Source of the DNA: a virus
Taxonomy: Duplodnaviria > Caudoviricetes
IMG/VR virus record: IMGVR_UViG_3300040811_001901
Location: 1 to 53,249 of that record
Direction: 5' to 3' (one strand)
Length of the DNA: 53,249 nucleotides
A model generated the notes under the pieces. That model saw only the letters and a list, made by a program, of their open reading frames with translations. It made no database searches and was not told where the DNA came from. A program made the translations under genes and the position numbers. Of this stretch, positions 159 to 48,192 are shown piece after piece (the stretch's first letter is position 1; every line of letters starts with the position of its first letter).

Positions 159-377
159 GTGAGAAAGATGAGTACGAGAGAAAGTACGGAAAATGCTCTG
201 AGACTATATCTCTCAGGAAAAATGCAGTATCATGCAGCAAACGTAAAAATTTATCTTGAAAATCCAGTAGGAATTGGAGAGCATCCAGACGTATTGGGAG
301 CTTTAGAGGATGAGTTAGGTAAAGTTGCTGAATATAAGGAAAAGATAGATATTTTAAGAGAAATATGTGATGGTTGA
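159..377 (+). CDS. small conserved phage hypothetical protein (NPVGIGEHPD motif)
   Basis: AGGAGG at 144-149 precedes the GTG start; overlaps the next gene; motif recalled from aquatic phages. Confidence 0.7.
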   Translation: MRKMSTRESTENALRLYLSGKMQYHAANVKIYLENPVGIGEHPDVLGALEDELGKVAEYKEKIDILREICDG

Positions 378-828
378 CAGTAGAGCAAAAGGAGCGAGAG
401 GTGAATACCTTGTTCGAGATATGCTTCGTACTGCTACTAACTTACAATTCGAAAGAGTCCCTAATTCAGGGGCTCTTGAGTATTTAAAGGGCGATCTATA
501 TGTTCCGAATGAGAAAAATAGATTTTGTATCGAAGTAAAAAATTACTCAGAATCACCTCTCTCAGATAAGATATTTACTGCGAAAAAGACAAATAATCTT
601 ATTCGCTGGTGGAGAAAAGTAGAAAAACAAGCCGCAGGAGGGGAGCAAGAGCCTCTGCTGTTTTTTAAGTATAATCGCTCTCCGGTATTTGTTGTAACAA
701 ATTTACAGCCAAATGCAACAGACGAGTGGATGTACATACAATTTTTAAATTGTTTTATATTATTAGCCGAAGATTGGCTAGAGAATGAAACAGTGGAGTT
801 TTTAAGAAATGGCATTCAGTTTCAGTGA
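367..828 (+). CDS. Holliday junction resolvase-like PD-(D/E)xK nuclease (T5 D14-like)
   Basis: SRAKGARGE N-terminus, KGDL and IEVK motifs; position before the flap endonuclease. Confidence 0.85.
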   Translation: MMVDSRAKGARGEYLVRDMLRTATNLQFERVPNSGALEYLKGDLYVPNEKNRFCIEVKNYSESPLSDKIFTAKKTNNLIRWWRKVEKQAAGGEQEPLLFFKYNRSPVFVVTNLQPNATDEWMYIQFLNCFILLAEDWLENETVEFLRNGIQFQ

Positions 829-1654
829 AAAAATAGTGAATCCAAGTGATAAAACTACACTTATAGTAGATGCGCTAAACTTAGCATTTCGATGGAAGCA
901 TCAAGGACGTACAGACTTTCGATATGATTATCAACGTACTGTAGAGTCTCTTGCAAAGTCTTATGACTGTAAAAATTTAATTATTGCAGCAGACTGGGGG
1001 TCTTCTAGCTATAGAAAAGGTATTAATTCTGAGTACAAGCAAAATCGAAAAGAAAAGTTTGCAGAACAAACTGAAGAAGAACGAATCGCATTTGAAGAGT
1101 TTTTCGAAGAATTCGAAGCATCACTAGAAGTATTAGAAGAAGCAGGATACCCTGTTCTTCGATACAAAGGTGTAGAGGCAGATGATATTGCCGCTCACTT
1201 GGTAAAAGAAAGAAATAAGTATGGTTTAGAATATATTTGGCTTATTTCGAGTGATAGAGATTGGGATTTACTCATTCAAGAAAATGTTGGACGATTCTCA
1301 TATGTGACGAGGAAGGAAGTCACGCTTGATACATGGTCTGACCATTATGAATGTTCTCCCGAAGAATACATCTCTCTTAAATGTCTCACAGGAGACAAAG
1401 GCGACAATGTCCCAGGCATACCTGGAATAGGGCCAAAGAGAGCTGTACAGCTAATTCAAGAATATGGGGATGCAATGAGTATTTATGATGCAACTCCAAT
1501 TGATAGTCGATATAAGTTTATTCAAGCATTAAATGAAAATGCAGAACAAATTTTAGAAAACTATGAACTTATGGATTTAATGACTTATTGCGATGATGCG
1601 ATTGGGCCTGATAATATATCAGATATACAAGGGAGAATGTTAAGTGTCGTTTAA
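809..1654 (+). CDS. 5'-3' exonuclease / flap endonuclease (T5 D15-like)
   Basis: LIVDALN, YKQNR, EADD, SSDRDWD and LTGDKGDNVPGIPGIGPKRA (H3TH) motifs. Confidence 0.93.
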   Translation: MAFSFSEKIVNPSDKTTLIVDALNLAFRWKHQGRTDFRYDYQRTVESLAKSYDCKNLIIAADWGSSSYRKGINSEYKQNRKEKFAEQTEEERIAFEEFFEEFEASLEVLEEAGYPVLRYKGVEADDIAAHLVKERNKYGLEYIWLISSDRDWDLLIQENVGRFSYVTRKEVTLDTWSDHYECSPEEYISLKCLTGDKGDNVPGIPGIGPKRAVQLIQEYGDAMSIYDATPIDSRYKFIQALNENAEQILENYELMDLMTYCDDAIGPDNISDIQGRMLSVV

Positions 1655-4824: not shown

Positions 4825-5058
4825 TTACGGGGTCTCAACGGGGTCTTCTGCCAGAGCAGTAATTACACCAACAGCAATCTTGTGTTCAACACCTCTCGCT
4901 ACTTCAGAAACACGAATTTCTGTAGCTTCCGCATCGTATGCTCCATCAGTAAAGACTGCATTTACGCCGCGAGTGTGTGTAATTGTTCCATCTGTAAAAG
5001 TTACCTCTACAGTTGTATTTTCACCTTCTGGTGCGTTATATGTATATGTTACGCTCAT
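4825..5058 (-). CDS. small fibre-associated hypothetical protein
   Basis: ATGA overlap with the upstream fibre gene; last gene of the minus-strand operon. Confidence 0.65.
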
Positions 5059-6965
5059 TTTAATTTATCCTTTAGTTCTTCAATTTGAGCTTGTTGCTCT
5101 TTGATTGCTTCGACTAGCAAAGCACACACCCTATCGTATTGAATAGTTTTGTAATTCTCACCAGACTTAGATGTACCCATTTTGTGTGATTGGTCTTCTT
5201 TGCTATTCGGCTCCGGTGAAAACGTATCGAACGGGGCTAACTTAACTAGTTGCGGCATAACCTTTTCTACGTCTTGTGCTATCAAACCGACATCATTAAA
5301 CTTTGTCTCTGGCTTAAAACCCAATTCGTCTGCCTTATCATTCCAGTCAAACGTTACACCTTTTATTTGTTTAACTTTATCTATTGCATTTTCAATAGGC
5401 TTGATGTTGGTTTTTAATCTTTCATCCGATGAGTAAGCAGTAATATTATACTGAGCGGTGATGTTACCCCCAAAAATAGCATCGTTATTTGTTAGGTTCC
5501 AATACACCGGCCACATGTTGTTAACGGTACCCCAAGACGTAGAATCCGTAGCCTGGTTTCCGCGTAATATGTACATTAGATTACTGTTATTATGAAGCAT
5601 AGCACCGCGGTGATTGGTATCGCGGAAGTATATTGTCGGTGCATCGTTACGAATCCAGATAGCGTTGCTATCAGTAGAGCTGTTGGTTTTTATAGCAGAA
5701 AGTTCTGTACCATCTAACAAATCAGCATCCAAGCCAGAGCCAGAGCCGTCGTTTCCTGAATCCCATAGAGTATGTGTATTATCCCGCGTAAAAGAACCGC
5801 TATCTGGAAGTTTCAATCTCCATGCGTATGCTGAACTTAAAAATCCTTGAGAGCCGCCGCCTCCATAAACCAAAAACTGTTGAGCCCCGGTGCTATCTAA
5901 ACCATGTATAGAAGCTTCGTTATTATCCCCAGCATTTTGAATAGTTAATGTTTTCCAAGAGTGTGAAGTAGAGTGGGTTAAAGTAGCATCACCAAGAGTT
6001 AACGAGCTAAGAGTAATATTCGTGCCCGTGTCATTAGCATCGCTACGCAAAAAGCTAGAAGCCTGTAGCCCATCAACAGTATCAGCATCTAAACCTGAGC
6101 CAGCGCCGTCGTTTGTAGCACCCCAAAGAGTTCCTTGAACATCAGTAGATAGAGAGCCAGCAGTAGTAAGCACGGCCCTTTGAGTAGCATTACAAACAAA
6201 TGATAATTGATGGTTGGTGTACGTACCTACATGCCCCATGGTACCACCATGCCAAGAGTCATGTGCGTAAATACCCATTCGTACATTAGCTGTTTTTACA
6301 TTAACTCTTGCATGGCCGCTACCATGAATATTTAACTGCCTATTCCACCCGTCATAATTGGTATTTGCTTCTCCAATGGAAATACCTCCGTAGGTAGCAC
6401 CCGTAACTTGAAGATTTCCGCTGGTAACATCATTAGCATCGGAGCGTAGAAACTGAGAAGCACTTAAACCGCCTACAGTTCCTGCATCATAAGAAGTAGA
6501 ACCCGCGGGTCCAGTAGGTCCAGTAGGGCCAGTAGGTCCTGTTGGCCCAGGCGATCCATTACTTCCAGCAGGTCCCGTAGGTCCCGTAGGTCCGGTAGGT
6601 CCGGTAGGTCCATCTGCTCCATCAACTCCTATACTTCCATCCGCTCCAGCGGGTCCCGCAGGTCCGGTAGGTCCGGTAGGTCCGGTAGGTCCGGTAGGTC
6701 CACTTAAAGTTTGACTTGCTACATAATCAATTACAGCAGCGGAAGTAGGAAGAGCAGTATCAGTATCATGATTTGCAATTTCTTCTGACGCAGTAACTAC
6801 TGCATCATTGTGCAGTTTTGCAAAAGTAACACTCTCATCTTTAATTGCAGCAGTTTCAACAGAGGCATCTCGAAAAGTATTCTTACCCGCTTTTACATTT
6901 CCAGATACATCTGTTTCTAGCCCACGAAGCCATTCTGCTAGTTTTCTTCCTTTAGATTTTGACAT
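5055..6965 (-). CDS. tail fibre with collagen-like segment and C-terminal peptidase S74 intramolecular chaperone
   Basis: (GPT)n, repeated GSGLDAD..DG / FLRSDAND motifs, SDERLKTNI...GLIAQDV, C-terminal coiled coil. Confidence 0.85.
6501..6701 (-). repeat. collagen-like Gly-Pro-Thr tandem repeats
   Basis: Three GPT runs; exact 9-nt unit GGTCCGGTA x4 at 6661-6696. Confidence 0.9.
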
Positions 6966-6968: not shown

Positions 6969-7526
6969 TTACTCCGGTTGAGTCGGCCATACTATATTAG
7001 TAGGGAATCCTGCTTGAGCGGGTATATCTCGTAGTGCTTGTCTATAGTCTAGCCACGCTTGGGAAGCCTCTGGAGTATCAGAAAATACTAAATAATCTGT
7101 TTCTCTTAAGAGATAAAAACGCTTTCCTCGTGCTCTATCAGCTAACTCTTCTTCTGTTAAATCTACGACTTCCCAATACTCTATAATATTGTCCTCTGTT
7201 TGTCGAACCGCCGAAACTAATTTTTGAGTATCAAAATTATACTCAGGCTCTGGCTCAGTAAGTATTTCTTTTAGCTTTTCTCGCACAGCCGGTTGAGGAC
7301 CAGTTAAAGACTCTGCAAGCATAGGAGGGGCATTTACAGATTTTTCCCATGTATCACAGATAACATGAGCAAAAGTTTCTATTTGATCTCTAACTGCCTC
7401 TTCCGATAAATCCCCTAATCTAAAACTTTGTACTAGCTCTTGATGATTTTCGTTATCTGAAGTATATCGTACTGATATAGAAAGAGTGTTTGCGTTATAT
7501 TCTATTATTTCATAAGTATAGTTCAT
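6969..7526 (-). CDS. tail fibre assembly chaperone-like protein
   Basis: C-terminal R..LL.ETD...W..YRQALRDIP....FP..IVWPTQP motif. Confidence 0.75.
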   Translation of the reverse strand: MNYTYEIIEYNANTLSISVRYTSDNENHQELVQSFRLGDLSEEAVRDQIETFAHVICDTWEKSVNAPPMLAESLTGPQPAVREKLKEILTEPEPEYNFDTQKLVSAVRQTEDNIIEYWEVVDLTEEELADRARGKRFYLLRETDYLVFSDTPEASQAWLDYRQALRDIPAQAGFPTNIVWPTQPE

Positions 7527-8521
7527 GCCGTATAAGTTCCTGAGTTTGCTGAGGAGCCGCTAGACGTTACATTCTTTACTAGAGTTGCTCCGATGTAAAT
7601 ATAAATATATCCTACGCCATTTCGTGAGCCATTACTGCCCGTAACTGTCACAGTAGAAGAGCCGCTATAGGCAGAAGTTCTTCCGTAGCCTCCACCACCT
7701 CCACCTCCGCCTCCGCCGGCGTTGCCGCCTCCTCCACCGCCGCCTCCGTAGCCTCCGCCGCCACCGCCACCAAAACCGTCGCCTGCAGAAGCCCCGTTTC
7801 CGCCGTAACCACCATTATATCCTAGACTATTTGCTCCATAAGCATAGGAAGTAAGAGGATTCTTTCCGCTTCCTCCTGCTGTAGATGTTCCTGCATTGCC
7901 GGGATTTCCTCTTGTCGATGCTCCTGCAGAGCCTCCTGTACCGCCGGAGCCACCGCCACCACCACCGCCAATCCATACGCTATTATCACCCGAGCCCGCG
8001 TTTCCTCCGCTATTTGCGCCACCTCCGTTGCCCCCTCTTCCATCTGAAGGATCTGCATAGCCATAACCTTCTCCACCGCCACCGCCTCCTCCACCGGCAA
8101 TTCCGAGAATTACACCTCCGCTTGTCCAGCGAACTACAGAAGCGCCGCCTCCAGGGGCTCCCCAGTCTATTCTACCACCATTACTGGGAACATTGGTACC
8201 TCGTCCTCCAGAATATAATTGAAATTGCGTGCCTCCGGGAACGGCTACTTGACAACGAGTATAGCCGCCATAACCTCTTCCTGATTGAGCGTTATAATTG
8301 CCGCTAGTATTTGCAGCACCTCTGCCCCCATAAATACGAAAATCAAGAGATACTGAAGAAGAAGCTCCGTACCACTCATTAAAGCTCATTTGAACGCCAG
8401 AGGCTTTACTAATAAGTGCTCGAATATCTGCATCATTAATAGTGCAAGTTGTACCAGAGACTCCACCAGCCTCTACATGAATATCGTTAAGACTAATTGA
8501 TCCGCTAGTCTGAATAGCCAT
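7523..8521 (-). CDS. glycine-rich fibre-tip adhesin-like protein
   Basis: Start taken at ATG 8521 (AAGGAG RBS), N-terminus MAIQTSGSISLNDI; many Gly5-9 runs. Confidence 0.7.
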   Translation of the reverse strand: MAIQTSGSISLNDIHVEAGGVSGTTCTINDADIRALISKASGVQMSFNEWYGASSSVSLDFRIYGGRGAANTSGNYNAQSGRGYGGYTRCQVAVPGGTQFQLYSGGRGTNVPSNGGRIDWGAPGGGASVVRWTSGGVILGIAGGGGGGGGEGYGYADPSDGRGGNGGGANSGGNAGSGDNSVWIGGGGGGGSGGTGGSAGASTRGNPGNAGTSTAGGSGKNPLTSYAYGANSLGYNGGYGGNGASAGDGFGGGGGGGYGGGGGGGGNAGGGGGGGGGGYGRTSAYSGSSTVTVTGSNGSRNGVGYIYIYIGATLVKNVTSSGSSANSGTYTA

Positions 8522-8523
8522 TC

Positions 8524-8564
8524 TTTCTCCTTTGGTTCGCCCCAATCTCCGAGTGAGGTAATTA
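8524..8564 (-). repeat. 41-bp intergenic element, copy 1 (hairpin plus RBS)
   Basis: 39/41 identical to 46232-46272. Confidence 0.9.
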
Positions 8565-10700
8565 TTACGCCGGTACTATAATTATGCCAAAGCCTATTAA
8601 ACGGCTACTACTTGAATGAAAATTATTATTTGTTAAAACATAATCATTGCCGGTGCTGCCGCCTTCCATAAGATAGCACAGGCTGCCACTTATATAAGCC
8701 AATATTGGTTCAACGAGACCTGATCCCCAGCCGCTTGAATATGTTGTAACAATACCACCTCCAACATTAGCACCATCTCCTGAAAAAGGTAATCCACCTA
8801 AAACCATATAAGTTCCACTAATTGATCCAGCATTAGTTAATTGAACATCAAATGTAATATGGACTACATTTCCAATTTTTCTATATCTTCCTCTTTGCGT
8901 AGAATAACTTTGCCCAGAAGCTCCACTATTTCCTGTGATCGTTGGATCCCAAGTCCCTTCCTCGTAATCGTCTAAATGATTAGCTGACCCAGTACCGCCG
9001 AGATATGCGCCGCCTGATAGGTAGAGGTCTTTAAATCTTCTACTATCTTGACCTAAATCAATCGTAGCATCGATGGAAGCGCCGTTTCTAACTGGCAATA
9101 TTTTTGCCGCCGCGCCATGACACAATAAACCAGCACCAGCAGTAGTACCTCCTTGAATATATAAACTATCTCCACCCTCAATACCAATACTACCCAAAGT
9201 GGTACCATCTTTGCGTAGAAGTACAACAGCTCCGTCATCCGTCTTTCGATTGAAAGTTGCCGCAGGGTTAGATGCTACGGTGCTTCTGACACCGCCTGTA
9301 TTAGACAGTTCTACACCGGCATCATTGACACCTGCGCTGGTAGGGTTAGCATTAGTAGTACCAACCAGCAAGTTGCCGCTGGAGTCGATGCGCATACGTT
9401 CGTTAGCGTTAGTATAAAACGCCATTGGGTAGGCACCATCAGAATATATAACTCTTGCGTAAGCACCTGAGCTAAAGCCAGCACCAGTGCTGTTGTCTAT
9501 CATGTGATAAAAATTACCACTAGAGTTTTTGTTGTGTAGACCAGCAAAACCTGTAGTAGCTTCGCTTCTTATCTGAGCCGCTGTTGTGCCATTAATATGT
9601 AACGGTGTAGCAGGACTCGCGGTGCCAATACCAACGCTGCCGCTAGAGTCAATAACCATTCTGCTGCTGACTGTTCCATTGCCTGTATAAAATTTAAACC
9701 CACCACCATTTATTCCTTCAAGCAAACCGTATTGAGTCGTTGTAGAGCCAAACGATATTGAAGGTGCGCCGGTAGATTTTCCTAAAATTAACTGTGATCC
9801 TGCTGCAGAATATACTTGTAACGGGCCGCCGCCGCCTTGAGTCATTCCAGTAGTGCCAATACCAACGTTGCCGCCGTAGGTCATGTTTAAAATATTACTA
9901 TTAACAGCGGAAGCAAAAGTATGAGCTATCTTGGTTGTATCGCTTGTTACGCCCGAGTAATAAGTAATTCCATATGAATCACTAGACTTGCCTATGGTAT
10001 ATGCAGAGATAGCGCTGTTATAAGAGAAAGCTAACTTACCATCAACCACTAATTTTTGGTCTGGACTCGTAGTGCCAATCCCAACGTTGCCATTAGTATG
10101 AATTCTCATTCTTTCGGTATAAGAACCTCCGCCCATAAATTTAACTGGACCGGCACCACTCCACCCATACTCGGCTTCATTAGAAGAGTTAATTCGAACT
10201 AGCGTTCTAGCATTAGCACTAGTATCATAAGATCTAAGGTCATAATTATTATCTACAAAAACATGCCCAGCAGATACATTTAAACCTTTATTAAAATTCC
10301 AATCGTCATTCGTACCATTGTAAGTCAGCGTAGCACTTGCACCATCAACTGTAATACCAGCACCATTTGCAGCGGCTGCGTTTGCCGCGCCACTTGCAAG
10401 AGTAATATTCAAATCATCAACTGTCATTGTAGTCGAGTTGATAGTCGTAGTAGTACCATCGACTTGTAAATTACCCGCAACTACTAAAGTTCCAGTATTA
10501 TCGCCTACGGCCGCAGGGTCGATAGTAAATGTAGAAGGCCCAGCAATATAGCCAGTAGTAGTAATATTTCCAGAAGTTAGCGTGGTTACTGTAGCAGCGG
10601 ACGCAGTTGTTGCCCCAATAGTAACACCATCAATGGCTCCTCCATCAATGTCTACTTCTGGGTCTACAATCTGTGTTGGAAATTTTCCTAAAAATGGCAT
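8565..10700 (-). CDS. tail fibre with GNVGIG repeats and LDDYEEGTW-type C-terminal tip domain
   Basis: GNLQVDGTTTTINST shaft, ERMRI..GNVGIGT repeats, RFKDLYLSG, LDDYEEGTW. Confidence 0.8.
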   Translation of the reverse strand: MPFLGKFPTQIVDPEVDIDGGAIDGVTIGATTASAATVTTLTSGNITTTGYIAGPSTFTIDPAAVGDNTGTLVVAGNLQVDGTTTTINSTTMTVDDLNITLASGAANAAAANGAGITVDGASATLTYNGTNDDWNFNKGLNVSAGHVFVDNNYDLRSYDTSANARTLVRINSSNEAEYGWSGAGPVKFMGGGSYTERMRIHTNGNVGIGTTSPDQKLVVDGKLAFSYNSAISAYTIGKSSDSYGITYYSGVTSDTTKIAHTFASAVNSNILNMTYGGNVGIGTTGMTQGGGGPLQVYSAAGSQLILGKSTGAPSISFGSTTTQYGLLEGINGGGFKFYTGNGTVSSRMVIDSSGSVGIGTASPATPLHINGTTAAQIRSEATTGFAGLHNKNSSGNFYHMIDNSTGAGFSSGAYARVIYSDGAYPMAFYTNANERMRIDSSGNLLVGTTNANPTSAGVNDAGVELSNTGGVRSTVASNPAATFNRKTDDGAVVLLRKDGTTLGSIGIEGGDSLYIQGGTTAGAGLLCHGAAAKILPVRNGASIDATIDLGQDSRRFKDLYLSGGAYLGGTGSANHLDDYEEGTWDPTITGNSGASGQSYSTQRGRYRKIGNVVHITFDVQLTNAGSISGTYMVLGGLPFSGDGANVGGGIVTTYSSGWGSGLVEPILAYISGSLCYLMEGGSTGNDYVLTNNNFHSSSSRLIGFGIIIVPA

Positions 10701-13700
10701 TTTATGCTCCTTTCAATGCTGCTACTTCGGCTTTGAGTTCTTGAATCATTGCTTGTTGTTCTTGGATGGCTCCGGTCAAAACTGCCACAAACTTCATGTA
10801 GTCAACGCCATACATCGGATCGTCCAAATCATCATCAATAGGGTTTACACGATTAGCAAACTCAGGTGTTTCCATCAATTCCTGAGCAATAAAACCGCTG
10901 TCCTCTGCCCCATTAGATTTCCATGAATACTTGCGAGGCTTTAGCTTCATTACATCAACAAGCGCGTTGTCATAATCTCTGATGTTTTCTTTTAGGCGAG
11001 CGTCTGAGGATGGGTTATAGGAAGTAGTTGAAGTTGTAGCGCGAATGCTACCTACTGCTACGCCATCAAAGCGCTCAAAACTAATCAAGGTTCCTGTATT
11101 TCCGCCAGTAATATAATCGTTGTGAATTAACACAGGAGTAAAGTTGGTTCCAGAGCTATTTTGAAGAACATAAACCCCAGTACCACTGCCGCCGTTACTT
11201 GCAGTAATTTTTCCTGAAGCTGAAGTAGTACCAACCAGCAAGTTGCCGCTGGCATCAAGTCGCATCCTTTCTGTTAGCTCATCAGTAGTCGTAATAGCTG
11301 TGCCGTGGGTATAGAACCTGATCTGCGTACCCCAATCGCCTCCGTTCTGACGAGCAAAGCCGATACCAGCGGAAAGAGTATCTTCCGCGCCAGCTAATAT
11401 CGCCATTTCTGAGTTTGTTCCTGATAGGCCACTAGTAGACGTTAATCTTATAGCGCCCCCATCAAAAGCAGAGCCAGAAGTTTTTGAGTTAGTGTTTGGA
11501 GTTAACTTAACAGTAAGAGGATTGAAAAGCGTCGTCGTACCAATACCAACGCGGCTGCTGTCATCGATTTTTACCGCAACATTCGGGCCATTTAGAAATG
11601 AGTAAATGTGTTTATTTGCGGCAGTAGTTTGAATCTGAAATCCGTTAGAAACCCCAGAAATACCACTAAAAAGAGATGAACTTGCCACTCCAGATGCAGA
11701 TACCTGCGTTATATTTCCGTCTTGATCTATTGAGCAGGAACCGGCTTGACCGAAGTAAGTTCCTCCAACTATCACGTTGCCCAACGTGTCGAGACGCATA
11801 CGTTCGGTTAGCGTGGAAGTGCCGCTTTGTCTTGTGTAAAGTTTGAGTGCTGGATCGCCCGTTCCTTCAATAGCGGCGTTAACATTTCCTGAGCCAATAG
11901 TTCCGTCATACCATTGAATTTTTTGTCCTCTATCTACGCTAACGTTGCCGCTGGAGTCTATGCGCATGGCCTCAGTGCTATTAACAGTAAACCTCATGTG
12001 ATTATCACTATGGAAATACTGCAACATGCCAATATTGCTACTGTCTGCGTCGGCAAAGTTAATCTGAGAGTTCCCTGCTGTATTTGTGCTCGTAAGAATT
12101 AACTGAGCTAAGTCACCGCCAGAGGTAAGTCCAATTTGTGCATTACCTGATCCTGTTCGTGCATCAATCAAATAAGCAGGACTCGCAGTGCCAATACCAA
12201 CATTCTCTGACGCATCAATCGTAATCGCAGTAGATGTAGCGTTGTCATCAATACCCGTCGAAGCAAAACTCGAAATACTGCCACCATTTATAACATCACC
12301 CGAGATTTGATCATTTGCAAAAGTTAAAGTTTTACTTGACAAGTCGAGAGCAGCTTTGAGTTGTGCGTCTCCAACTGTATTGTCCGAAGGAGTACCAATA
12401 TCTACTGCGTCTCCAATTACAAGTATATAATCAATTACATCACTTGCTGTAAGTGCTGAAGCAAATACAATATTCGAACCGGATACAGTGTATGCGCTTT
12501 CAGGGGCCTGGGTTACGCCATTTAGAGATACAATTAAATTTCTTGCACTTTCAGGAATATATGCCGAGCCGCTTACTGTCAGAGCATAGGTATCCGTAGC
12601 TGACGTAGTAATTGAATCTATCAGCTGAAATGCTCCGACTTGTGGGGATTTTCCTATGAATGGCATTGTTTATGCTCCTTTTAGTGTTGCTACTTCGGCT
12701 TCAAGTGTTTCAATTCGTGTTACTGCTTCTTGTAGAGCCGCAGTCAGCAGAGGTACCAGCTTAGACTGGTCTATGCCTTGATACTCTGGGTTGCCTTCAT
12801 CGTCTACTGCATCCTTAGCGCCTGTAATAGCTTCTGGCACAACGTCTTGAACTTCGTGTGCAATAAAGCCGTCTACGGTCTTATCTGGATCAGCAATGAA
12901 GTTAAAGCGGTGTACAGGGATTTGCTTGAGACGATCAATGCCGTTATCAAGGTTAACTACGTTTTCTTTGAGGCGGTAGTCTGATAAACTCTGGTATGCG
13001 GTAGTAGAGCCATTTGTTACTATTTGCCCAACCTTGCCGTTTGGATTATAAAAAGCAGCTACGGCATCTGCTCCAGATAATGTAGTGGCAGCTTTGAGGA
13101 TGCCTCTGTTGTTGTCTTTGTATAGCACTATTCCGTTTGATGGAGTTCCTGAATTTGTTGTACCAACCAGCACGTTGCCGCTGGAGTCTATGCGCATACG
13201 TTCTGTGGCGCTAGTACCAAAGCTCATAAAGCTGGCTTCTCTGTTCCAAATATACGCCGCGCTGGCAAAAGTAATTAACTCTAAACCATCACTAGCTGTT
13301 GACCCTGTTACGCTGTCTGTAATGTGTACTGAAGACCCGCCACCAGCCGCACTATGAACCTGTAGTTTTCTTCCGTATCCAGCAACGGGGGCAACACCAA
13401 TACCAACATTGCCGCTGGCGTCGATACGCATACGTTCTGGAGTTGTTGGTCCTGTATAAAACCGCGTAAAACCATGCGACAAAATATTTAAAGCATCGGG
13501 AGCGTTGTGCTGAAAACCTATGTATCCACGATATGCCTCGTTGCCTGAAGTACCATCCGCAAACATTAGATAGTTTGCATCGGAAGTAGCACTAGCCGCT
13601 ATGGTAATACCGCCTTGGTCGGGGGCGGCAACCACCAAGTTATCAGCGTAGTAAGAGCTTGGACTCGTAGTGCCAATCCCAACTTTGCCGCTGGCGTCGA

Positions 13701-14229
13701 TACGCATTCCTTCTGTAAAGCCAGATTTAAAAAAGCGTAATGCGTTGTCAGCGTTGTTGAATAAAACACCGCCTACTAAATCTGCATCTGAATCACCAAA
13801 TGTTATGCCAGCGTTTCCTGTATTACCGCTTACAACTGAAATATAAGTGCTTGTGTTGGTTGCGGTAATATCTTCTACTTGAAGTTTTGAAACAGAGTTA
13901 GGACTCGCAGTGCCAATACCAACGTTGCCGCTGGAGTCGATACGCATACGCTCTGTAGAGGCTGTATTAAACGTAAAGGCTCTACGGTTCGCTGTTGTTG
14001 CGTGTGATTCATGGTAAAACTTTAAGTGAAAATCCTTTTGTCCATTAGTGCCAGGATTACCAAAATAAATTCCACTTTCGCCGGTTGAAGCAGTTAATAA
14101 ACTAAGACCAACATTGCCGCTGTTTTCTAAAACAAGTTCATCAGCATCGGCATCCGCACTAACACTGCCTGCACTTGCAGAAAACACATTTAGTTTTCCG
14201 TCTGGACTCGCAGTGCCAACACCAACATT
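9354..14229 (-). repeat. dispersed in-frame ~50-bp repeat family (ERMRIDSSGNVGIGTxSP), about 14 full or partial copies here and 2 more at 47204-47502
   Basis: Reference copy 13901-13953; exact 29-nt match 9354-9382 = 11224-11252; exact 24-nt match 10062-10085 = 13660-13683. Confidence 0.85.
10702..12666 (-). CDS. tail fibre with GNVGIG repeats and peptidase S74 chaperone
   Basis: VSLNGVTQ.P domain, TGIDDNATS, ERMR repeats, SDARLKENI...GFIAQEL, coiled coil. Confidence 0.85.
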   Translation of the reverse strand: MPFIGKSPQVGAFQLIDSITTSATDTYALTVSGSAYIPESARNLIVSLNGVTQAPESAYTVSGSNIVFASALTASDVIDYILVIGDAVDIGTPSDNTVGDAQLKAALDLSSKTLTFANDQISGDVINGGSISSFASTGIDDNATSTAITIDASENVGIGTASPAYLIDARTGSGNAQIGLTSGGDLAQLILTSTNTAGNSQINFADADSSNIGMLQYFHSDNHMRFTVNSTEAMRIDSSGNVSVDRGQKIQWYDGTIGSGNVNAAIEGTGDPALKLYTRQSGTSTLTERMRLDTLGNVIVGGTYFGQAGSCSIDQDGNITQVSASGVASSSLFSGISGVSNGFQIQTTAANKHIYSFLNGPNVAVKIDDSSRVGIGTTTLFNPLTVKLTPNTNSKTSGSAFDGGAIRLTSTSGLSGTNSEMAILAGAEDTLSAGIGFARQNGGDWGTQIRFYTHGTAITTTDELTERMRLDASGNLLVGTTSASGKITASNGGSGTGVYVLQNSSGTNFTPVLIHNDYITGGNTGTLISFERFDGVAVGSIRATTSTTSYNPSSDARLKENIRDYDNALVDVMKLKPRKYSWKSNGAEDSGFIAQELMETPEFANRVNPIDDDLDDPMYGVDYMKFVAVLTGAIQEQQAMIQELKAEVAALKGA

Positions 14230-14373
14230 CTCACTAGCATCAATCGTAATCGCCGTTGAAGTTGCATTATCATCAATACCCGTCGAAGAAAAATTAGTAA
14301 GCGGATAGGAAAGATCCGCGGTTTCGACTGTACCCGCTGGAATTGCTAGACTGTTGAGGCGTGTGATTGCCAT
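12670..14373 (-). CDS. tail fibre with GNVGIG repeats and peptidase S74 chaperone
   Basis: Five repeat units; SDYRLKENV...GFIAHEVQ...IDQSKLVPLL. Confidence 0.85.
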   Translation of the reverse strand: MAITRLNSLAIPAGTVETADLSYPLTNFSSTGIDDNATSTAITIDASENVGVGTASPDGKLNVFSASAGSVSADADADELVLENSGNVGLSLLTASTGESGIYFGNPGTNGQKDFHLKFYHESHATTANRRAFTFNTASTERMRIDSSGNVGIGTASPNSVSKLQVEDITATNTSTYISVVSGNTGNAGITFGDSDADLVGGVLFNNADNALRFFKSGFTEGMRIDASGKVGIGTTSPSSYYADNLVVAAPDQGGITIAASATSDANYLMFADGTSGNEAYRGYIGFQHNAPDALNILSHGFTRFYTGPTTPERMRIDASGNVGIGVAPVAGYGRKLQVHSAAGGGSSVHITDSVTGSTASDGLELITFASAAYIWNREASFMSFGTSATERMRIDSSGNVLVGTTNSGTPSNGIVLYKDNNRGILKAATTLSGADAVAAFYNPNGKVGQIVTNGSTTAYQSLSDYRLKENVVNLDNGIDRLKQIPVHRFNFIADPDKTVDGFIAHEVQDVVPEAITGAKDAVDDEGNPEYQGIDQSKLVPLLTAALQEAVTRIETLEAEVATLKGA

Positions 14374-14709: not shown

Positions 14710-16296
14710 TTATCCTAAAGCGATTGCCAAAGCTGTTGCATCGTCTACTGAAGCATAACTACCAAAGTCACTAATCTGTGACTCAGTAATACTTAAAGCT
14801 GCTTGGTGCTGGGTTACGCTTGATTGCGTGATATTTGTGTCCGGTACGTTCGCCCAAGTTACAGACGCAGACAGATCATTAGTTTCTGCCGTCAAGTAAG
14901 ACTGCAAATCACTAATTTGAGATTCAGTGATCGACAGGGCCGCTTGATGCTGGGTTACGTTGCTTTCTGCTATTCGCGCATCAGCAAAGGTGCCTGACTG
15001 TATATCTGCTGCTGTTAGCGCCCTAGCCGCCGCCTGATTGCTGGCATTACCGATAAAGACGTCGCCATCATCAAGATTTGGAACAGCATTTGTTCGTCCT
15101 GCACCCCCTACCTTAATAACACCATTACTACTAGCACTTCTTATAATTTTACCAATATTTTGAAGTAAGTTGTTTTCTCCGGTTGGAGGCGTTGATGTAA
15201 AACCTCCGGCGGTAGTAGCACTTACATATAAAGTGTCTCCTACAGTGAAAGCACTTGTATCTAATGCAGCACCTCCACTACCATATAGATTGCCAAAAGT
15301 TACAACTTGACCCGAGGCGCCATTTGCAACATCGGATAGCATGAGTCCAAAAGCAGGCATTGTAGAAGCACTGTTTGCTTGAGCTTTTGATACTATAGTG
15401 TTGTCTCCGGCAGCGCCACTAATATAAACAACGTCGCCTTTGCTTAAAGCTTCCCCCGCTTGAACTGTAAATCGGATTCCTCCGTCTAAATCTCCTTTTA
15501 TTTCATAAGAAGATTCTGGAAATCCAGACATTGTAATATCGCCTGAAAATGTGGATTCCCCGCCAACGGTTAAGTTTCCGCCAACTGCTAAATCTCCGCT
15601 ATACTCACCAATTGTAACGGCTCGACCCATATCTACGATATAGTCGACCACGTCGCCTGTTACAAGTGCGGGACTGAATGTAATTGTAGAGCCAGAAATT
15701 GTAAAAGAGTCGCCAGGCTCCTGGGTTATGCCGTTGAGAGATACTATAAGAGCATTTTGAGAAGAAGGAGTATACGCAGACGAATTTAAAGTAAGACTAT
15801 ATGCAGCCTGAGCATTTACAGTAGTAATTGCATCAAGTTTTGTAGGATCTTGTAAGCTGCCGCTAGTTGTTACATTTGTAAATGCAGCTATTCGTACTTC
15901 ATCATTTGCGGTAAGTGAGTTTGTAAATACTACCGAAGTGCCGTTTGTTGCAGTATAGTCAACTCCGTCATCTTGAAATACTCCATTGAGAAATACAAGT
16001 ATAGAGCCCGCGGTGTAAGAAAGAGTAGCAGAATTATTGTCAGAGCCAGAAAAAGTAGTTTGATTGGAAGTTGCAGTATATTCATACTCAATCATTCCAG
16101 CTTCTAGATAAGAAACTGTATTTCCACCTACACCACCACCACCAATTTCTACAATAGACTCAATACCGTTAACAGCCTTTTTGATGTACATTTTACCATC
16201 ATAGGTGTTAATTGCAACTTCGCCAAGTGCTAAATTGGATGTAGTAGGTGTAGCGCCCGAAGTAGCCGAGCGCTTTAGTTTAATCGTCTGTGCCAT
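14710..16296 (-). CDS. fibre/structural protein (IKLKRS...GEVAIN N-terminus; ends ATALAIALG)
   Basis: Two VFLNG/VSLNG domains, GEALSKGDVVYI domain, duplicated VTQHQAALSITESQISD. Confidence 0.7.
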   Translation of the reverse strand: MAQTIKLKRSATSGATPTTSNLALGEVAINTYDGKMYIKKAVNGIESIVEIGGGGVGGNTVSYLEAGMIEYEYTATSNQTTFSGSDNNSATLSYTAGSILVFLNGVFQDDGVDYTATNGTSVVFTNSLTANDEVRIAAFTNVTTSGSLQDPTKLDAITTVNAQAAYSLTLNSSAYTPSSQNALIVSLNGITQEPGDSFTISGSTITFSPALVTGDVVDYIVDMGRAVTIGEYSGDLAVGGNLTVGGESTFSGDITMSGFPESSYEIKGDLDGGIRFTVQAGEALSKGDVVYISGAAGDNTIVSKAQANSASTMPAFGLMLSDVANGASGQVVTFGNLYGSGGAALDTSAFTVGDTLYVSATTAGGFTSTPPTGENNLLQNIGKIIRSASSNGVIKVGGAGRTNAVPNLDDGDVFIGNASNQAAARALTAADIQSGTFADARIAESNVTQHQAALSITESQISDLQSYLTAETNDLSASVTWANVPDTNITQSSVTQHQAALSITESQISDFGSYASVDDATALAIALG

Positions 16297-16342: not shown

Positions 16343-17680
16343 TTAGAATGTTCCGCCGTCGAGTACCGTAATCTGAGTCTGGAAGTTGACAGTTGTCAAC
16401 AAGTTAGCAGTAGTCAAAGTATTGCTATTATTGGGATCGGGCTCAAATACTTGCCAAATGTCAGAAGTCTCATTCCAACGCAAGTAAACATTTGTTGCTG
16501 TGCCTCGCTCAATTTCAATACCTGCATTCTGAGAAGGAGTACCAGTTTCATCACGATTGAGAAGAATAATATTATCTCCAATCTCAACAGTGTTTGAATT
16601 TACTGTAGTAGTTGTACCATTTACAGTAAGGTCGCCCGCAATTGTAACTGCACCATCATCTGCAATAGTCATCACAGAAGAGAAAGAGTTTACACCAGTT
16701 CCGCTCGTTGTGCCATCAGCAGTTTGGAAAATAATTGAACCACCTGCCCCAGAACCTGTACCTGCACCGGCTTGGAAGGTAAGATCTGTACCTGCTACGT
16801 CTGTACCAGAGCCATCAATACCGTGTAGAGTATTCAACCCGTCAAGACTTGCAGCAGTTGTACCTAGGTCAATTTCTGTAGAGCCAACTGTTACAGAATC
16901 ATTTACGAGCATTGCATTTGTAACGCCTAGAGCTTTAATTCTTAGAGTATCAGCATTAGTTTCAATTGAAGAGTTATCTACATTTACTGCAAGAACGCCG
17001 CTAGTTGCTCCAAGACCGTCTCCAGCGATTGCAGTAATTAAATCTGCTACAGCTTCTTTTTTATTGTTATTACTGTCATCCGAATCGATAAATACAAAAC
17101 TATCATTCGCTACATCAATTGCAGTATCAGTAACTTCATTAAGAGATAGTGTAAAAGTTACATCATCACCTACGTTACTAGTTACTATTCCTTCTCCACC
17201 AAGAAGTTTTAGTTTATCTAAAGTGAGGTCTACTCCATTATCTACAGCATCATCGCTCTGAATTGTAAGAGTTGTAGAAATTGCTACTGAGCCCGCTGCG
17301 GTTAATCGACCTTGTTGGTCAACTGTAAAAGTAGGAATAGCAGTAGTAGAGCCATACGAGCCAGGAGTTACAGCAGTATCGTCAAGATCTATATTAAGAG
17401 TAGCTGTTGTTCCGGCTTTAGCAATAGTGGTAGTAATACCAGTATCACCAACAATATCAAGAAGATCCTGAATATTAATAGTTACATCAGTGCCTGAGTC
17501 TCCTCCAACTGTAAGAGGCGCGGTAGATGCAATTACAATATTGCCAGTAGTTCCGTCGGGATGCCCGATAAAAAGTTTATCTGAATTACTTGAATATGCA
17601 AGTTCACCTGCCGCAAGGCTTGAAGACGGAGCGGCTGTGGTGGAACTGCGCTTAATTTGAATAGTTTGAGTAGTGGCCAT
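16343..17680 (-). CDS. fibre/structural protein (IQIKRS...AGELAY N-terminus; ends LDGGTF)
   Basis: VTPGSYGS...FTVDQQGRLTAA, GDLTVNGTTTTVNS, AGIEIERG motifs typical of phage fibre shafts. Confidence 0.7.
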   Translation of the reverse strand: MATTQTIQIKRSSTTAAPSSSLAAGELAYSSNSDKLFIGHPDGTTGNIVIASTAPLTVGGDSGTDVTINIQDLLDIVGDTGITTTIAKAGTTATLNIDLDDTAVTPGSYGSTTAIPTFTVDQQGRLTAAGSVAISTTLTIQSDDAVDNGVDLTLDKLKLLGGEGIVTSNVGDDVTFTLSLNEVTDTAIDVANDSFVFIDSDDSNNNKKEAVADLITAIAGDGLGATSGVLAVNVDNSSIETNADTLRIKALGVTNAMLVNDSVTVGSTEIDLGTTAASLDGLNTLHGIDGSGTDVAGTDLTFQAGAGTGSGAGGSIIFQTADGTTSGTGVNSFSSVMTIADDGAVTIAGDLTVNGTTTTVNSNTVEIGDNIILLNRDETGTPSQNAGIEIERGTATNVYLRWNETSDIWQVFEPDPNNSNTLTTANLLTTVNFQTQITVLDGGTF

Positions 17681-29209: not shown

Positions 29210-29655
29210 TAGGGTTCGTAAACCTTTCTAAAATTTCCTGTTAAAGTATGAATATCGTTTTGTCCGTAGTTAATGTCATAGTTTTCGCAAACTACTTTTA
29301 CCGTTTCCTCTGAAATTACTGCGTCAAAATTTAGTCCAGCTTTTACATCTAAGAAAGCACTAAGAACTTCGATCTCTTCCCAAGGACGATTTTTAAAGGC
29401 AAAGTTAAAAGTAGTTTCTTGGGTATTTATTCCGTCTCTTACTCTTTGCTCATACCCATCTCCAAATTTTGCAACTAAAAGTCGATGTTTTACTCTTTTT
29501 GTAAAGCCTCTATCAAATGCAAAAACTTTTGAAGCAGCAGAATTTGGAAAAACTTCGTTTAAAAGTGCTGTTGCTGTTCCTGCACTTGGAAATCTTGCCG
29601 CTATTTCAGTAGATACTTCAGTTTTTAATACATCTATTTTAAATATTCTTGCCAT
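29209..29655 (-). CDS. distal tail protein (lambda M-like)
   Basis: AKFGDGYEQRVRDGIN...FRKVYEP. Confidence 0.85.
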   Translation of the reverse strand: MARIFKIDVLKTEVSTEIAARFPSAGTATALLNEVFPNSAASKVFAFDRGFTKRVKHRLLVAKFGDGYEQRVRDGINTQETTFNFAFKNRPWEEIEVLSAFLDVKAGLNFDAVISEETVKVVCENYDINYGQNDIHTLTGNFRKVYEP

Positions 29656-38731: not shown

Positions 38732-40132
38732 TTAAGCTACTACGTCGAGTCGAACTACAGATACGTCAGCTGCAGTATCAGCTACGAGCTGGTTAAAGCC
38801 CAGAGACTGAGTAGCAACAATAACGTTACGCTGGTTCATTACTTCGTAATCTTGCTCAACATTTACACCACGCAGACGTGGGATTGCAAAGTTACGAACG
38901 TTGACTGCGAGACCAACACAAGCATCTTCAGCTTCCGCAGGGAAGTTGTCAGATACGATTACGGGCGTACCATAAATCGCACCTACTTGACCGGTCAGCT
39001 TGGTAGCAACGTCAGAACCTACATCAGTGATATCGGCAAAACCGGCATCAGCGATCAGATCGTAGTAACGCTTCTGAGATACAACATATACCAGCTCATC
39101 AGGCATCATGCCATACTTACCCATCAGCTTACGGGCTGAGAGGAAGTCGGCTGCGTCTACCGCAGTAGAAGCCAGAGCAGCAGCAGATACAGAAGTATCA
39201 AACGTATTCGTGCCAGCAAGCTTAATCAGACCATCAAAGTCATCAGAGCCGCCAGTAGCTACGTGGTTCAGCAGAGCATCGTCTACAGCGCGAGCGTGTG
39301 AACGTGCAACTGATTCTACGAGCATAGGCATCAGATTGATCAGGATTTCCTCGTCAACGTGGTTATCCATCAACGTGGTTGAAATCAATCGGTAAGCCTT
39401 CAGAACTACCTGAGCAGGCTGAGGAGCAGCGCCGCCTCGAGTCTGCAAATTACCTGAAGTAGCTGCACCAGTCTGGAACGTAGCCAGACCTGTATCCTGT
39501 TGGATGGGCAGTACTTGAGCTTGAGAATTGATCTGGATCTCACGGAACGCACGAGCCAGTCGCAGTTCACGCATGATTTCCTTCTCAATTTGGCTAGATA
39601 CTTCAGTAGCGATGTTAGGAGCAGAAGATGAATAAGTTACACCAGCTTTCTCAATGATACCGCGACCATAAGAAGTGCCTTCCATGCCCTTACCAGTCAT
39701 TACACCCAGCAGGTGAGCGTGCATGAACTCTTTGCCCCACTTAGAAATGGTGTCGCCTTCTGAACGATCAGAGAATACACGCTTAGACTCACGCATCTTG
39801 GTGATTTCTTCGCTCTTCTCTTCCAGTTGCTTCTGATACGACAGAATTACTTCGTCGATCTTAGCATCCTTCTCAGACAGCTTAGCTTCGATGTCAGCCA
39901 TCAGGCGCTCAGCACCTGACTCAACACCAACGCTTACAGCAGCCTTGACTTCTTCTTCTTGAGCAGCTTTCTCAGCAGCTTCAGCGGCCGCCTTCTCTTC
40001 TGCTTCTTGAGCTGCCTTTTCTTCGGCAGCCTTTGACTCAGCTTGCTTCATAGCGATCTTAGCAGCAGTCTCCTCTGCTACTTTCTTCGCAAAAGCTTCC
40101 AAGTCGACTTCGGGAGTTTGTACTTCCGACAT
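38732..40132 (-). CDS. major capsid protein precursor from internal in-frame start (466 aa)
   Basis: AAGAGGAG 6 nt upstream of in-frame ATG (Met204, MSEVQTPE). Confidence 0.7.
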   Translation of the reverse strand: MSEVQTPEVDLEAFAKKVAEETAAKIAMKQAESKAAEEKAAQEAEEKAAAEAAEKAAQEEEVKAAVSVGVESGAERLMADIEAKLSEKDAKIDEVILSYQKQLEEKSEEITKMRESKRVFSDRSEGDTISKWGKEFMHAHLLGVMTGKGMEGTSYGRGIIEKAGVTYSSSAPNIATEVSSQIEKEIMRELRLARAFREIQINSQAQVLPIQQDTGLATFQTGAATSGNLQTRGGAAPQPAQVVLKAYRLISTTLMDNHVDEEILINLMPMLVESVARSHARAVDDALLNHVATGGSDDFDGLIKLAGTNTFDTSVSAAALASTAVDAADFLSARKLMGKYGMMPDELVYVVSQKRYYDLIADAGFADITDVGSDVATKLTGQVGAIYGTPVIVSDNFPAEAEDACVGLAVNVRNFAIPRLRGVNVEQDYEVMNQRNVIVATQSLGFNQLVADTAADVSVVRLDVVA

Positions 40133-46272: not shown

Positions 46273-48192
46273 AGTTCTTTGATATGTTGCATGAAAATCC
46301 AGTCTAGCTCCACTAACATCTGAATATCTTATTGCCTGATCCCCATGTCTATAAAAAAGTACATTTGCTCCAGCGTTTTCAATTACAGATACAAGTGTGT
46401 CACCCATACTATCATTCATGTTAGTATAGCCATGTCCTCCATGGCCCGCATAAAAGCCATTAACATTTGAGGTAAACGGAATATTTAAAGCAACATTAGC
46501 AGTATTTGTTGTAGTTGGAAACACTATAGATGCACTGATATAAACGAGAGATCCTATTTTAATATAATAACTTCTATTCGTAGCCACAGTCAGACCCTGT
46601 CCGCTCGCATCAGCAGCACTCCAAGTCCCTTCTTCGTAATCGTCTAACGCATTAGCGGCGGCTGTGTCGCCATTGAACTTCATCCCGTCTGCGTCAATTC
46701 GTGCTGCCTCACTGCTTCCCGTTACAAATTGGTGCGCTTTGTTGCTTGGAACCGTATATGTAATCGGATAGCCTGAATATAAGTGTAATCCTGTTGTGGC
46801 TCGAGTGTCATAAGGCAAGGTCAGGGAACCGAAAACAGTGGCATCAGTATTGAACATCCATTGTATGCCGCCGTCTGTGCCAGTAGCACCTGACTTCAAT
46901 CTATAATATGCTGTAGTTGAGTCGCCTAAAACTAAATGCCCCGAAGTGTTAAATCTGCCTACCTCTGAGCGCACGCCGGAGTGGTATTTTTGAATGACTA
47001 GTGGTGAAGCAGTGCCTGGTGTTGTATCTGTGTCACCGTATAAGATGATTGACTTAGATACACCATTACCTGACGACAATAATTCTAAAATTGCGCTTCT
47101 ATCATTAACAGAGTCAATAGCTCTTACAGATAGAGTTGTATTACCGCTAGAATTTAATTGTAACGTTTTACTTGAAGAGATTACTGGTGATACTGAAGAT
47201 ACACCAATACTAACGTTGCCGCTGTCGTCGATACGCATACGTTCCGTTGAGGTATTTCCTGTAAAGAATTTTATAGATCGACCACCAACTCCTGGCCTAC
47301 ACTGAAGCACAAGGTCTCCAGAGCTAAAGTCAGTGACATTAGCAGCTGCTGAAAAAACACCTCCTAATCCTGCAGTAGGAACACCCGCAGTTAAATCGTA
47401 GCGAGCGACGACAAATCCTTGATTGTCTATTCCAAATGTTATATTAGAATCCGGAGCCCCTGTACCAATATTAACTCCACCATCAGCGATACGCATGCGT
47501 TCTGTTCTATCGGTCGTAAAAATAACATCGTCTGGGCCGTCTGCGGCTACGTATAAATCGTAACCTGAAGTAGAAACGATTTGCGGCATTCCAGTTGCAG
47601 CACCGGGATTTGTTCTTGTACTACCTGCGCCTCGTATTATTAATTGATTGGCAGAGTCGTTTTTAATTACAAGACCGGTCCCTGTGCTTGCGTCAGGTTC
47701 TTCAATTAAAATATTTCCGTCATAGACATGAAGTAGTTCTACAGGATCTATACCAATGCCTAAGTTTTTATTAAATGACCATGCATCATTCGTAGATCCG
47801 TATGTAAGAGCTGCACTAGCACCATCAACTGTAATACCCGCTCCATTTGCCGCCGCAGCATTTGCTGCTCCAGAAGCAAGAGTAATATTTAAATCATCTA
47901 CAGTCATTGTAGTTGAGTTGATAGTTGTAGTAGTGCCATCAACTTGCAGATTGCCTGCAATTACAAGAGTTCCAGTATTGTCTCCTACTGCTGCAGGGTC
48001 GATAGTAAATGTAGAGGGTCCGGCAATATATCCGGTAACAGTAATATTACCAGAGGAATCAATAGTAAGTGCAGTAGTACTGGCGTTATCATCAATACCA
48101 GTAGAGGAAAAATCAGTAAGAGGGTAGTCTAAATCGGCGGAGACAATTGTATCGTCTGGAATGCCGAGACTATTAATAGTAGTACGAGCCAT
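46270..48192 (-). CDS. tail fibre paralogue with LDDYEEGTW tip domain
   Basis: Shares its N-terminus with the 12670-14373 product and a shaft segment with the 8565-10700 product. Confidence 0.8.
   Translation of the reverse strand: MARTTINSLGIPDDTIVSADLDYPLTDFSSTGIDDNASTTALTIDSSGNITVTGYIAGPSTFTIDPAAVGDNTGTLVIAGNLQVDGTTTTINSTTMTVDDLNITLASGAANAAAANGAGITVDGASAALTYGSTNDAWSFNKNLGIGIDPVELLHVYDGNILIEEPDASTGTGLVIKNDSANQLIIRGAGSTRTNPGAATGMPQIVSTSGYDLYVAADGPDDVIFTTDRTERMRIADGGVNIGTGAPDSNITFGIDNQGFVVARYDLTAGVPTAGLGGVFSAAANVTDFSSGDLVLQCRPGVGGRSIKFFTGNTSTERMRIDDSGNVSIGVSSVSPVISSSKTLQLNSSGNTTLSVRAIDSVNDRSAILELLSSGNGVSKSIILYGDTDTTPGTASPLVIQKYHSGVRSEVGRFNTSGHLVLGDSTTAYYRLKSGATGTDGGIQWMFNTDATVFGSLTLPYDTRATTGLHLYSGYPITYTVPSNKAHQFVTGSSEAARIDADGMKFNGDTAAANALDDYEEGTWSAADASGQGLTVATNRSYYIKIGSLVYISASIVFPTTTNTANVALNIPFTSNVNGFYAGHGGHGYTNMNDSMGDTLVSVIENAGANVLFYRHGDQAIRYSDVSGARLDFHATYQRT

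Follow-up and report, generated by a model that had tools for sequence, protein, structure and literature searches.

A 57-nucleotide in-frame repeat as the probable exchange joint between shaft modules in the fibre genes of a Caudoviricetes virus

The DNA analysed here, referred to as the window, is the whole of the linear virus record IMGVR_UViG_3300040811_001901 (Duplodnaviria; Caudoviricetes) of a marine phage, 53,249 bases long and with an estimated completeness of 55%. Four genes of its minus strand, indicated as A, B, C, and D, encode fibre proteins (Table 1), and embedded in them is a repeat of 57 nucleotides (nt), i.e., 19 codons, whose peptide consensus is xERMRIDSSGNVGIGTxSP. Fifteen strong copies (A1-A4, B1-B5, C1-C5, and D1) and a weak one were found, all of them on the minus strand, in frame, in direct orientation, and within long open reading frames (ORFs) of expressed-looking genes. 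The initial annotation, made from the sequence alone, had listed 16 start positions, a spacing of about 170-310 nt, and exact matches of 29 and 24 nt between different genes. All 16 positions land in real copies (15 strong, one weak), the copy-to-copy spacing was measured at 168-309 nt, and the exact matches proved to be real; they are in register and connect A4 with B5 (29 nt), B2 with C5 (26 nt), and B1 with C2 as well as A1 with C3 (24 nt each). Identical stretches of at least 20 nt occur in six of the 105 repeat pairs, far above the null (mean 0.11, maximum 2 in 2000 simulations). The 18-nt core has eight matches at no more than three mismatches versus 0.02 expected, a number that none of 100 shuffles reached, and when the whole window is compared with itself by BLAST, 27 of the 37 direct high-scoring segment pairs (HSPs) connect two repeats.

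Table 1. Features of the window, with the fibre genes and their repeats first and the other genes below (aa, amino acids; modules are given as ordinal number/total)
Feature	Position	Strand	Remarks
Fibre gene A, 711 aa	8565..10700	-	4 repeats; own C-terminal domain, without S74; paralogue of D
Fibre gene B, 654 aa	10702..12666	-	5 repeats; C-terminal Peptidase_S74 chaperone domain at 10702-11007 (PF13884, E 6e-12)
Fibre gene C, 567 aa	12670..14373	-	5 repeats; C-terminal Peptidase_S74 chaperone domain at 12670-12984 (PF13884, E 1.7e-9)
Fibre gene D, 640 aa	46270..48192	-	One strong and one weak repeat; paralogue of A
Repeat A4	9348..9404	-	Last-repeat variant GNLLVG; 29 exact nt in common with B5
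Repeat A3	9612..9668	-	
Repeat A2	9843..9899	-	5' half degenerate; GGNVGIGT core retained
Repeat A1	10062..10118	-	
Repeat B5	11218..11274	-	Last-repeat variant; 92%-identical L044/L049 segment ends within it
Repeat B4	11527..11583	-	Degenerate
Repeat B3	11752..11808	-	One edge of the L023-shared cassette
Repeat B2	11920..11976	-	Other edge of the L023-shared cassette; 26 exact nt in common with C5
Repeat B1	12178..12234	-	First-repeat variant ITIDASENVGIG; with its upstream sequence 87% identical to C1 over 90 nt
Repeat C5	13150..13206	-	Last-repeat variant
Repeat C4	13384..13440	-	
Repeat C3	13660..13716	-	
Repeat C2	13900..13956	-	Nearest to consensus; downstream edge of the C module 1 cassette
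Repeat C1	14203..14259	-	First-repeat variant; upstream edge of the C module 1 cassette
Repeat D1	47191..47247	-	
Weak repeat in gene D	near 47449-47505	-	Hidden Markov model score 7.1
Cassette B module 2, 37 aa	11809..11919	-	100% aa and 97.4% nt identity (194 nt with repeat edges) to L023 fibre module 2/4; flanks 15%
Cassette C module 1, 82 aa	13957..14202	-	96% aa and 88.6-89.5% nt identity to L046/L047 module 6/7 and an L023 fibre; flanks 11%
PDDEXK endonuclease (367-828) and 5'-3' flap exonuclease (809-1654)	367..1654	+	General recombination/replication enzymes
Further fibre	5055-6965	-	Collagen triple-helix repeat and Peptidase_S74, without the 57-nt motif; self-repeats at 6502-6702
Tail-fibre assembly chaperone	6969-7526		Adjoins the collagen/S74 fibre
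Fibre-like genes, run after the structural block	16343-17680, 14710-16296, C, B, A, 7523-8545	- (A, B, C)	
2797-aa tail protein	18457-26850	-	Sole recognised domain Phage-tail_3 (residues 590-740); GC3 very low, 0.17
Tape measure	29655-33644	-	
Major tail protein	34625-36217	-	
Apparent protease-capsid fusion, single 669-aa ORF	38732-40741	-	N-terminal half similar to head maturation protease, C-terminal half to major head protein
Portal	41052-42239	-	
Terminase	42671-43975	-	
Second tail-fibre chaperone gene	48908-49426		

The nucleotide conservation of the repeats, which the initial annotation had read as pointing to recombination or conversion, was tested against codon-usage nulls and exceeds every one that was tried. 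Comparing the 15 strong copies of the window, the same codon is used in 526 of the 937 comparisons at amino-acid-identical positions (56%). The nulls taken from all ORFs, from those parts of the fibre genes that are not repeat, and from the genes of the capsid region have means of 355, 340, and 341, respectively (about 36-38%), with z scores of 7.3, 8.7, and 8.3, and 526 was reached in 0/5000, 0/5000, and 0/3000 simulations. A position-specific null, built on the codon frequencies of 218 motif copies of other contigs, lies at 389 (42%; z 5.4, 0/3000). Since all four nulls are exceeded, codon bias does not explain the identity of the repeats. An explanation by optimal codons was considered and rejected, as the excess is not accounted for by capsid-region usage. 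At third codon positions the repeats have a GC content (GC3) of 0.46, where 0.27-0.32 would be expected. At aligned amino-acid-identical sites outside the motif, codon identity between paralogues is 0.39-0.44 (0.50 for A and D) versus an expected 0.35-0.40, and inside the motif it is 0.56-0.86 versus 0.34-0.40; the synonymous sites of the paralogues are near saturation outside the motif, unlike inside.

The same pattern was looked at in a comparison set of 160 viral-contig loci (L008, L009, and so on), made up of the 80 top-ranking loci of each of two queries; among the candidate stretches of these queries, 485 of 599 and 570 of 600, respectively, proved to be relatives. These loci hold 218 distinct motif copies in 117 of the 160. 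Codon identity is 59% in pairs from within a locus (1151/1949) and 41% in pairs between loci (97051/235485), the background expectation being 35%. Synonymous identity of at least 80% is found in 173 between-locus pairs versus 20 expected under a column-shuffled null, and of at least 90% in 48 pairs versus 2.2; the synonymous states are thus linked across columns, which fits shared descent or exchange of motif DNA. In 68 related loci the motif has a GC3 of 0.41 against a contig background of 0.31, and the modules between motifs, at 0.25, lie below this background. This pattern could have been left by GC-biased conversion where crossovers occur, or it could reflect selection on codons. No enrichment is seen for the palindrome AACGTT that the Asn-Val codons form (32 in the 143 copies considered, versus 39 expected). 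Taken together, the codon data speak rather for recombination or conversion having homogenised the motif, most strongly inside one genome.

The spacers between the repeats had been described in the initial annotation as unrelated modules. They are indeed dissimilar as DNA, but the proteins are collinear paralogues made of diverged homologous shaft modules: A and D are 33% identical over 666 aa (E 6e-78), B and C 30% over 591 aa (E 1e-50), and A and C 29% over 429 aa (E 8e-27), and off-register matches are also present among the fibre proteins. A profile of 26 sequences (profile A2) matches the Protein Data Bank (PDB) structure 8OND with an E-value of 7e-23 at profile positions 131-333, as well as 8OML (E 2e-14) and 8OJN (E 1e-9), all three being solved mosaic adhesive trimer (MAT) fibres of Bdellovibrio bacteriovorus, and its C-terminus matches S74 chaperone structures; a single fibre sequence also matches 8OND (E 4.5e-5). 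In the Pfam scan, Peptidase_S74 was recognised in B and C only, both having the S-D-x-x-x-K site of the S74 chaperone (SDARLKEN and SDYRLKEN, respectively), while D gave a sub-threshold DUF4251 and A nothing. By these matches the fibres are assigned to the S74/MAT fibre superfamily. As far as the published description goes, MAT fibres are intertwined trimeric beta-helices with a surface cleft bounded by two capping loops that carry a conserved motif (PMC10769870), V-G-G/N-pi-x-x-P-x-x-x-L in the part of that work concerned; the 3' half of the window repeat (VGIGTxSPxxxL) resembles this consensus, being one residue longer before the proline. Because of the profile match and of this capping-loop description, each spacer can be read as one diverged beta-helix module and each repeat as a module joint.

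The BLASTN search of the window against the 160 loci gave 551 HSPs, most of them hits of 30-60 nt on the repeats and a few long and near-identical. The latter disclose single modules of the window, at 89-97% nt identity, in viral contigs where the modules on either side bear no relation to those of the window. As an example, window positions 11774-11967 are 97.4% identical to L023, 13908-14249 are 89.5% identical to L023, and 13924-14231 are 88.6% identical to L046/L047, and in all three cases both ends fall inside repeats. In the alignment of C module 1, similarity switches on within repeat C1 and off within repeat C2; this cassette is the first of five modules in gene C and the sixth of seven in L046/L047, and it has 83% aa identity to L050. 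The initial annotation had pointed to viromes as a place to look for the same spacers in other orders or in other genes; in the loci compared, C module 1 is shifted and B module 2 is placed in unrelated flanks. Within C module 1, a degenerate extra motif, ENSGNVGLS, can be observed at 14102-14147 (minus strand), suggesting that this module might itself be the fusion of two older units. Two further segments, 10984-11252 (92.2% identical to L044/L049, beginning at the S74 boundary and ending inside B5) and 10701-11031 (92.1% identical to L067), introduce a second recurrent breakpoint, i.e., the start of the S74 domain with its autocleavage motif (window 10984-11031 and 12984).

A hidden Markov model built from the 15 window copies has 659 hits in 211 of the 1384 ORFs. 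Cutting at hits with a score of at least 14 left 178 ORFs and 642 modules, 286 of which are internal, with a median length of 67 aa. When modules are compared between loci, 164 pairs reach an aa identity of 80% or more, and in 82 of them at least one flank is below 40%. Related cassettes also stand at different ordinal positions: third of five in L011 and second of three in L049, third of four in L023 and first of three in L049, first of seven in L062 and second of five in L072, fourth of five in L104 and first of five in L123. The change-point mapping yielded 56 distinct boundaries. The change-point lies within the 57-nt motif for 23 of the 28 downstream boundaries and for 9 of the 28 upstream ones, and 17 of the 18 boundaries of internal cassettes are inside the motif; three further upstream boundaries have no break. 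The breakpoints are scattered over the whole motif rather than at a single site, and the junctions preserve the motif register without insertions or deletions. Another comparison concerns L034 and L039, which are 99.5-99.8% identical to L055 apart from one unit of 231 nt, consisting of a motif and a module. The motif at the joint of L034 is a hybrid of two L055 motifs, fused within an identical stretch of 15 nt, and this joint is the signature of an unequal crossover or of slippage between repeats. The motif is present in phages of several families and in Bdellovibrio fibres, and the carriers of this fibre family include pelagiphages and cyanophages.

Cultured isolates share the pattern. In the pelagiphages HTVC168P (nt 139-378) and HTVC134P (nt 952-1191), a stretch of 240 nt is 93.8% identical and ends at the motif, and nt 106-293 of Bylgja are 87% identical to nt 919-1106 of HTVC134P, starting within a motif. 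As for the window itself, Logan k-31 contigs of two estuary runs show no differences from it, but end inside repeats, and other contigs of the same two runs depart from the window at 11774, 13396, and 13955, again inside repeats. Since contigs stop there while others leave the window, the assembly graph branches at the repeats. Two runs with 11-23% of the words contain cassette-sized pieces of 92-97% likeness, corresponding to window positions 13931-14232 in X5 and 11777-11938 in X18, on contigs ending at repeats.

On the basis of these data, the repeat is quite likely the module joint of trimeric beta-helix fibre shafts, at which modules are swapped, moved, added, and lost. It would encode an invariant joint between successive shaft modules of the S74/MAT type, composed of a strand-turn-strand segment and a capping-loop-like stretch (xERMRIDSSGNVGIGTxSPxxxL). 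Since the same residues (about 19) would stand at both ends of each module, encoded by unusually similar DNA, a recombination between two motifs would always be in frame and would keep the fold. The recombining copies might belong to one gene, to paralogous genes, or to co-infecting phages, and the crossovers would replace one module, shift its position, or add or delete one. The exchange might be driven by homology, through identical stretches of 15-30 nt and with ordinary phage or host recombination enzymes, and repeated exchange or conversion may keep the motif DNA similar, within a genome more than between genomes. The swap of a module would also be the swap of a surface cleft, possibly binding host glycans. 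Of the ongoing recombination and modular cassette shuffling that the initial annotation had put forward, exchange, positional shift, module gain and loss, and breakpoints in the repeat are retained; the idea of a dedicated system is not.

Several points weigh against the repeat being a recombining joint. Recombination at the repeat is supported by sequence comparison, and the comparative evidence comes mostly from metagenome assemblies, with survey pairs that are not phylogenetically independent. The AlphaFold2 monomer of gene C is poor (mean predicted local distance difference test, pLDDT, 58.8; predicted template modelling score, pTM, 0.31), so that the trimeric fold stays a predicted one. 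Moreover, 16 of the 28 upstream boundaries, all of them of C-terminal modules, lie past the last motif, with similarity starting deeper in, and the segments in common with L067, L044/L049, L023, L008, and L009 begin or end at the S74 start; because of these boundaries and breaks, the motif is not the sole junction. Finally, codon choice in the motif is position-specific and partly common to contigs with a GC3 from 0.09 to 0.64 (the first Gly is GGC 140 times versus 52 expected, and later Gly avoid GGC, with 15 versus 30 and 25 versus 52; Ile favours ATC in column 5 and ATT in column 13), and the GC3 of the motif follows that of the genome with a slope of 0.93, staying about 0.1 above it throughout. 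Both features could be explained by selection on codons or mRNA. This is the core of the main rival explanation, according to which selection for translational accuracy or speed acts at a motif critical for folding, recombination is illegitimate and may occur anywhere, and the joins that survive are those in frame at module boundaries, the similarity of the DNA not being needed for shuffling. It would agree with the location of the motif at a structural boundary and with the fact that the capsid-region genes lean to some of the same codons (CGT 0.34, ATC 0.35, AAC 0.43); however, those genes show no preference for AGC, GGC, or GTT, the dominant codons of the motif, and their null falls well short of the observed identity. 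Codon selection would also have to face the higher identity within a genome (56-59%) than between genomes (41%), above the position-specific null as well, the linkage of synonymous states in the 48 most similar pairs, the junctions that keep register, and the L034 joint placed in an identical stretch. On this balance we regard the codon-selection explanation as rather improbable.

A different objection is that the mosaics are artefacts, metagenome assemblers having fused the fibres of different phages at shared repeats. The k-31 contigs of four runs do break at repeats, several continuations leave each repeat, the window joins at C1, C2, B2, and B3 are not bridged by those contigs, which break exactly there, and most comparison loci are metagenome contigs. 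Against this, the same mosaics recur in different metagenome records (L046 and L047, L044 and L049, L034 and L039), the exact repeats of the window do not exceed 29 nt, which is under the usual read length, and the same pattern, with a shifted cassette ending at the motif, is found in cultured pelagiphage genomes, which argues against an assembly artefact; we judge such an origin very improbable. Slightly less probable still is a dedicated diversity generator acting on the repeats, be it a site-specific recombinase or shufflon, a retroelement, or a set of silent cassettes. The regular alternation of repeats and variable segments in host-recognition genes would suit it, and the window does contain nuclease genes. 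However, the copies are all direct, in frame, and inside long ORFs, i.e., coding, unlike what is expected for diversity-generating retroelements, shufflon/invertase systems, or CRISPR-like arrays; the breakpoints cover the whole motif instead of one site, and the same motif occurs in several phage families and in Bdellovibrio fibres. The scan of 34 of the 41 ORFs in the window, which represents about 55% of the genome, revealed neither an integrase nor an invertase nor a reverse transcriptase, in agreement with the initial annotation, which had seen no dedicated recombinase there. Nothing observed in the window thus speaks for a dedicated shuffling system. The PDDEXK endonuclease and the flap exonuclease fit the earlier suggestion of D14/D15-like enzymes, and they may participate at the repeats.

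As regards the genomic context, a structural block of siphovirus type is encoded on the minus strand of the window and is followed by the run of fibre-like genes (Table 1). The GC3 of the window genes ranges from 0.17 to 0.44. Weak matches to T5 p143 and LtfC, together with the flap exonuclease, give the window a T5-like flavour. A megablast search with the fibre region as query and 50,697 phage records as target gave zero matches, so that these records offer no close sequenced relative for a check of module order. Three observations concern the surroundings of the fibre genes. A DUF7936 gene (102 aa, GC 0.515; 45634-45942, minus strand) adjoins fibre D, apart from B and C, and is 82-89% identical in nt to a gene located directly downstream of the S74 fibres in L034, L039, L043, L055, L064, L065, and L077; possibly this is a conserved accessory gene of the fibres, able to travel together with its fibre or on its own. 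Downstream of fibre D, an ORF of 84 aa (45973-46227, minus strand) has matches of 66-78% nt identity in more than 20 loci, just downstream of fibres of the A/D type. Lastly, a stretch of 51 nt directly 3' of genes A and D (8516-8564 and 46222-46272) is 90% identical between the two places.

If the repeat is the joint at which modules are exchanged, the host range of abundant marine phages, pelagiphages and cyanophages included, would be reshuffled by the exchange of single shaft modules via a defined and recognisable joint. The latter would be a handle for annotating modules, for tracking cassettes in viromes, and for designing chimeric fibres in laboratory phage-host pairs, and it would offer a clean natural case in which to ask if phage mosaicism is driven by conserved linkers or if these just persist through it. 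A broader proposal, which we advance as a tentative and somewhat doubtful one, is that the 57-nt joint is a universal linker in the sense of Botstein, whose DNA similarity is maintained by second-order selection or biased conversion in several phage families of marine, estuarine, and freshwater environments. It would sustain a common pool of interchangeable, possibly glycan-binding cassettes, and the GC3 surplus of +0.10 beside GC3-poor spacers might be the footprint of a recombination hot spot.

The shuffling of fragments in phage receptor-binding proteins is broadly documented, and according to the sections of Smug et al. 2023 (PMC10684548) that deal with tail fibres, these rank with the classes in which recent domain mosaicism is most enriched; the approach described there is based on hidden Markov models and domains, and in those sections the junctions are not tied to a repeated DNA motif and the word "breakpoint" does not occur. 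The homology of the shaft places the fibres of the window close to the MAT fibres (8OND, 8OML, and 8OJN, along with the S74 phage fibres of the T5 L-shaped fibre, 4UW8, and the K1F endosialidase, 3GW6), and the S74 chaperone in B and C, with other tips in A and D, parallels the S74 and non-S74 subgroups that PMC10769870 delineates. Within the portion of this work (Caulton et al. 2024) bearing on the question, mosaicism is treated at the level of proteins and domains, "recombination" appears in the methods only, and the conservation of the joint DNA and the mapping of crossovers are not addressed. In the open-access literature searched, no description of this motif as a junction at the DNA level was found, and "GNVGIG" was absent from the full-text search; what this literature offers on fibre recombination in pelagiphages or cyanophages and on conserved linkers concerns modularity in general. 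The principle is nonetheless not new, since recombination at conserved motifs in phage fibres is already known, the closest precedent being the adhesins of T-even phages. The antireceptors of Streptococcus thermophilus phages, too, carry collagen-like repeats beside a variable host-specificity region, which were proposed as recombination hot spots; these repeats are of the Gly-X-Y type, and both motif and fold differ from those of the window repeat. Among the T-even adhesins, the motifs of gp37 go by the name of "His box". In the passages of Trojet et al. 2011 (PMC3157838) devoted to these adhesins, where that name is absent, variable segments are interspersed with short motifs of high conservation in gp37 (Tetart et al. 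1996, 1998, as cited there) and in gp38, whose glycine-rich motifs separate hypervariable segments, natural chimeras arise from exchanges within or near the motifs, and the duplication of a small domain is on record, much as for the repeat described here. Exchange at the window repeat is deduced from sequence comparison, and it would involve whole shaft modules of about 40-85 aa, 4-7 per gene and in several paralogous genes, compared with the loops of one tip domain that those passages report for the T-even phages. Protein family and motif are also different, and the likeness between the two systems is thus one of mechanism and not of family membership.

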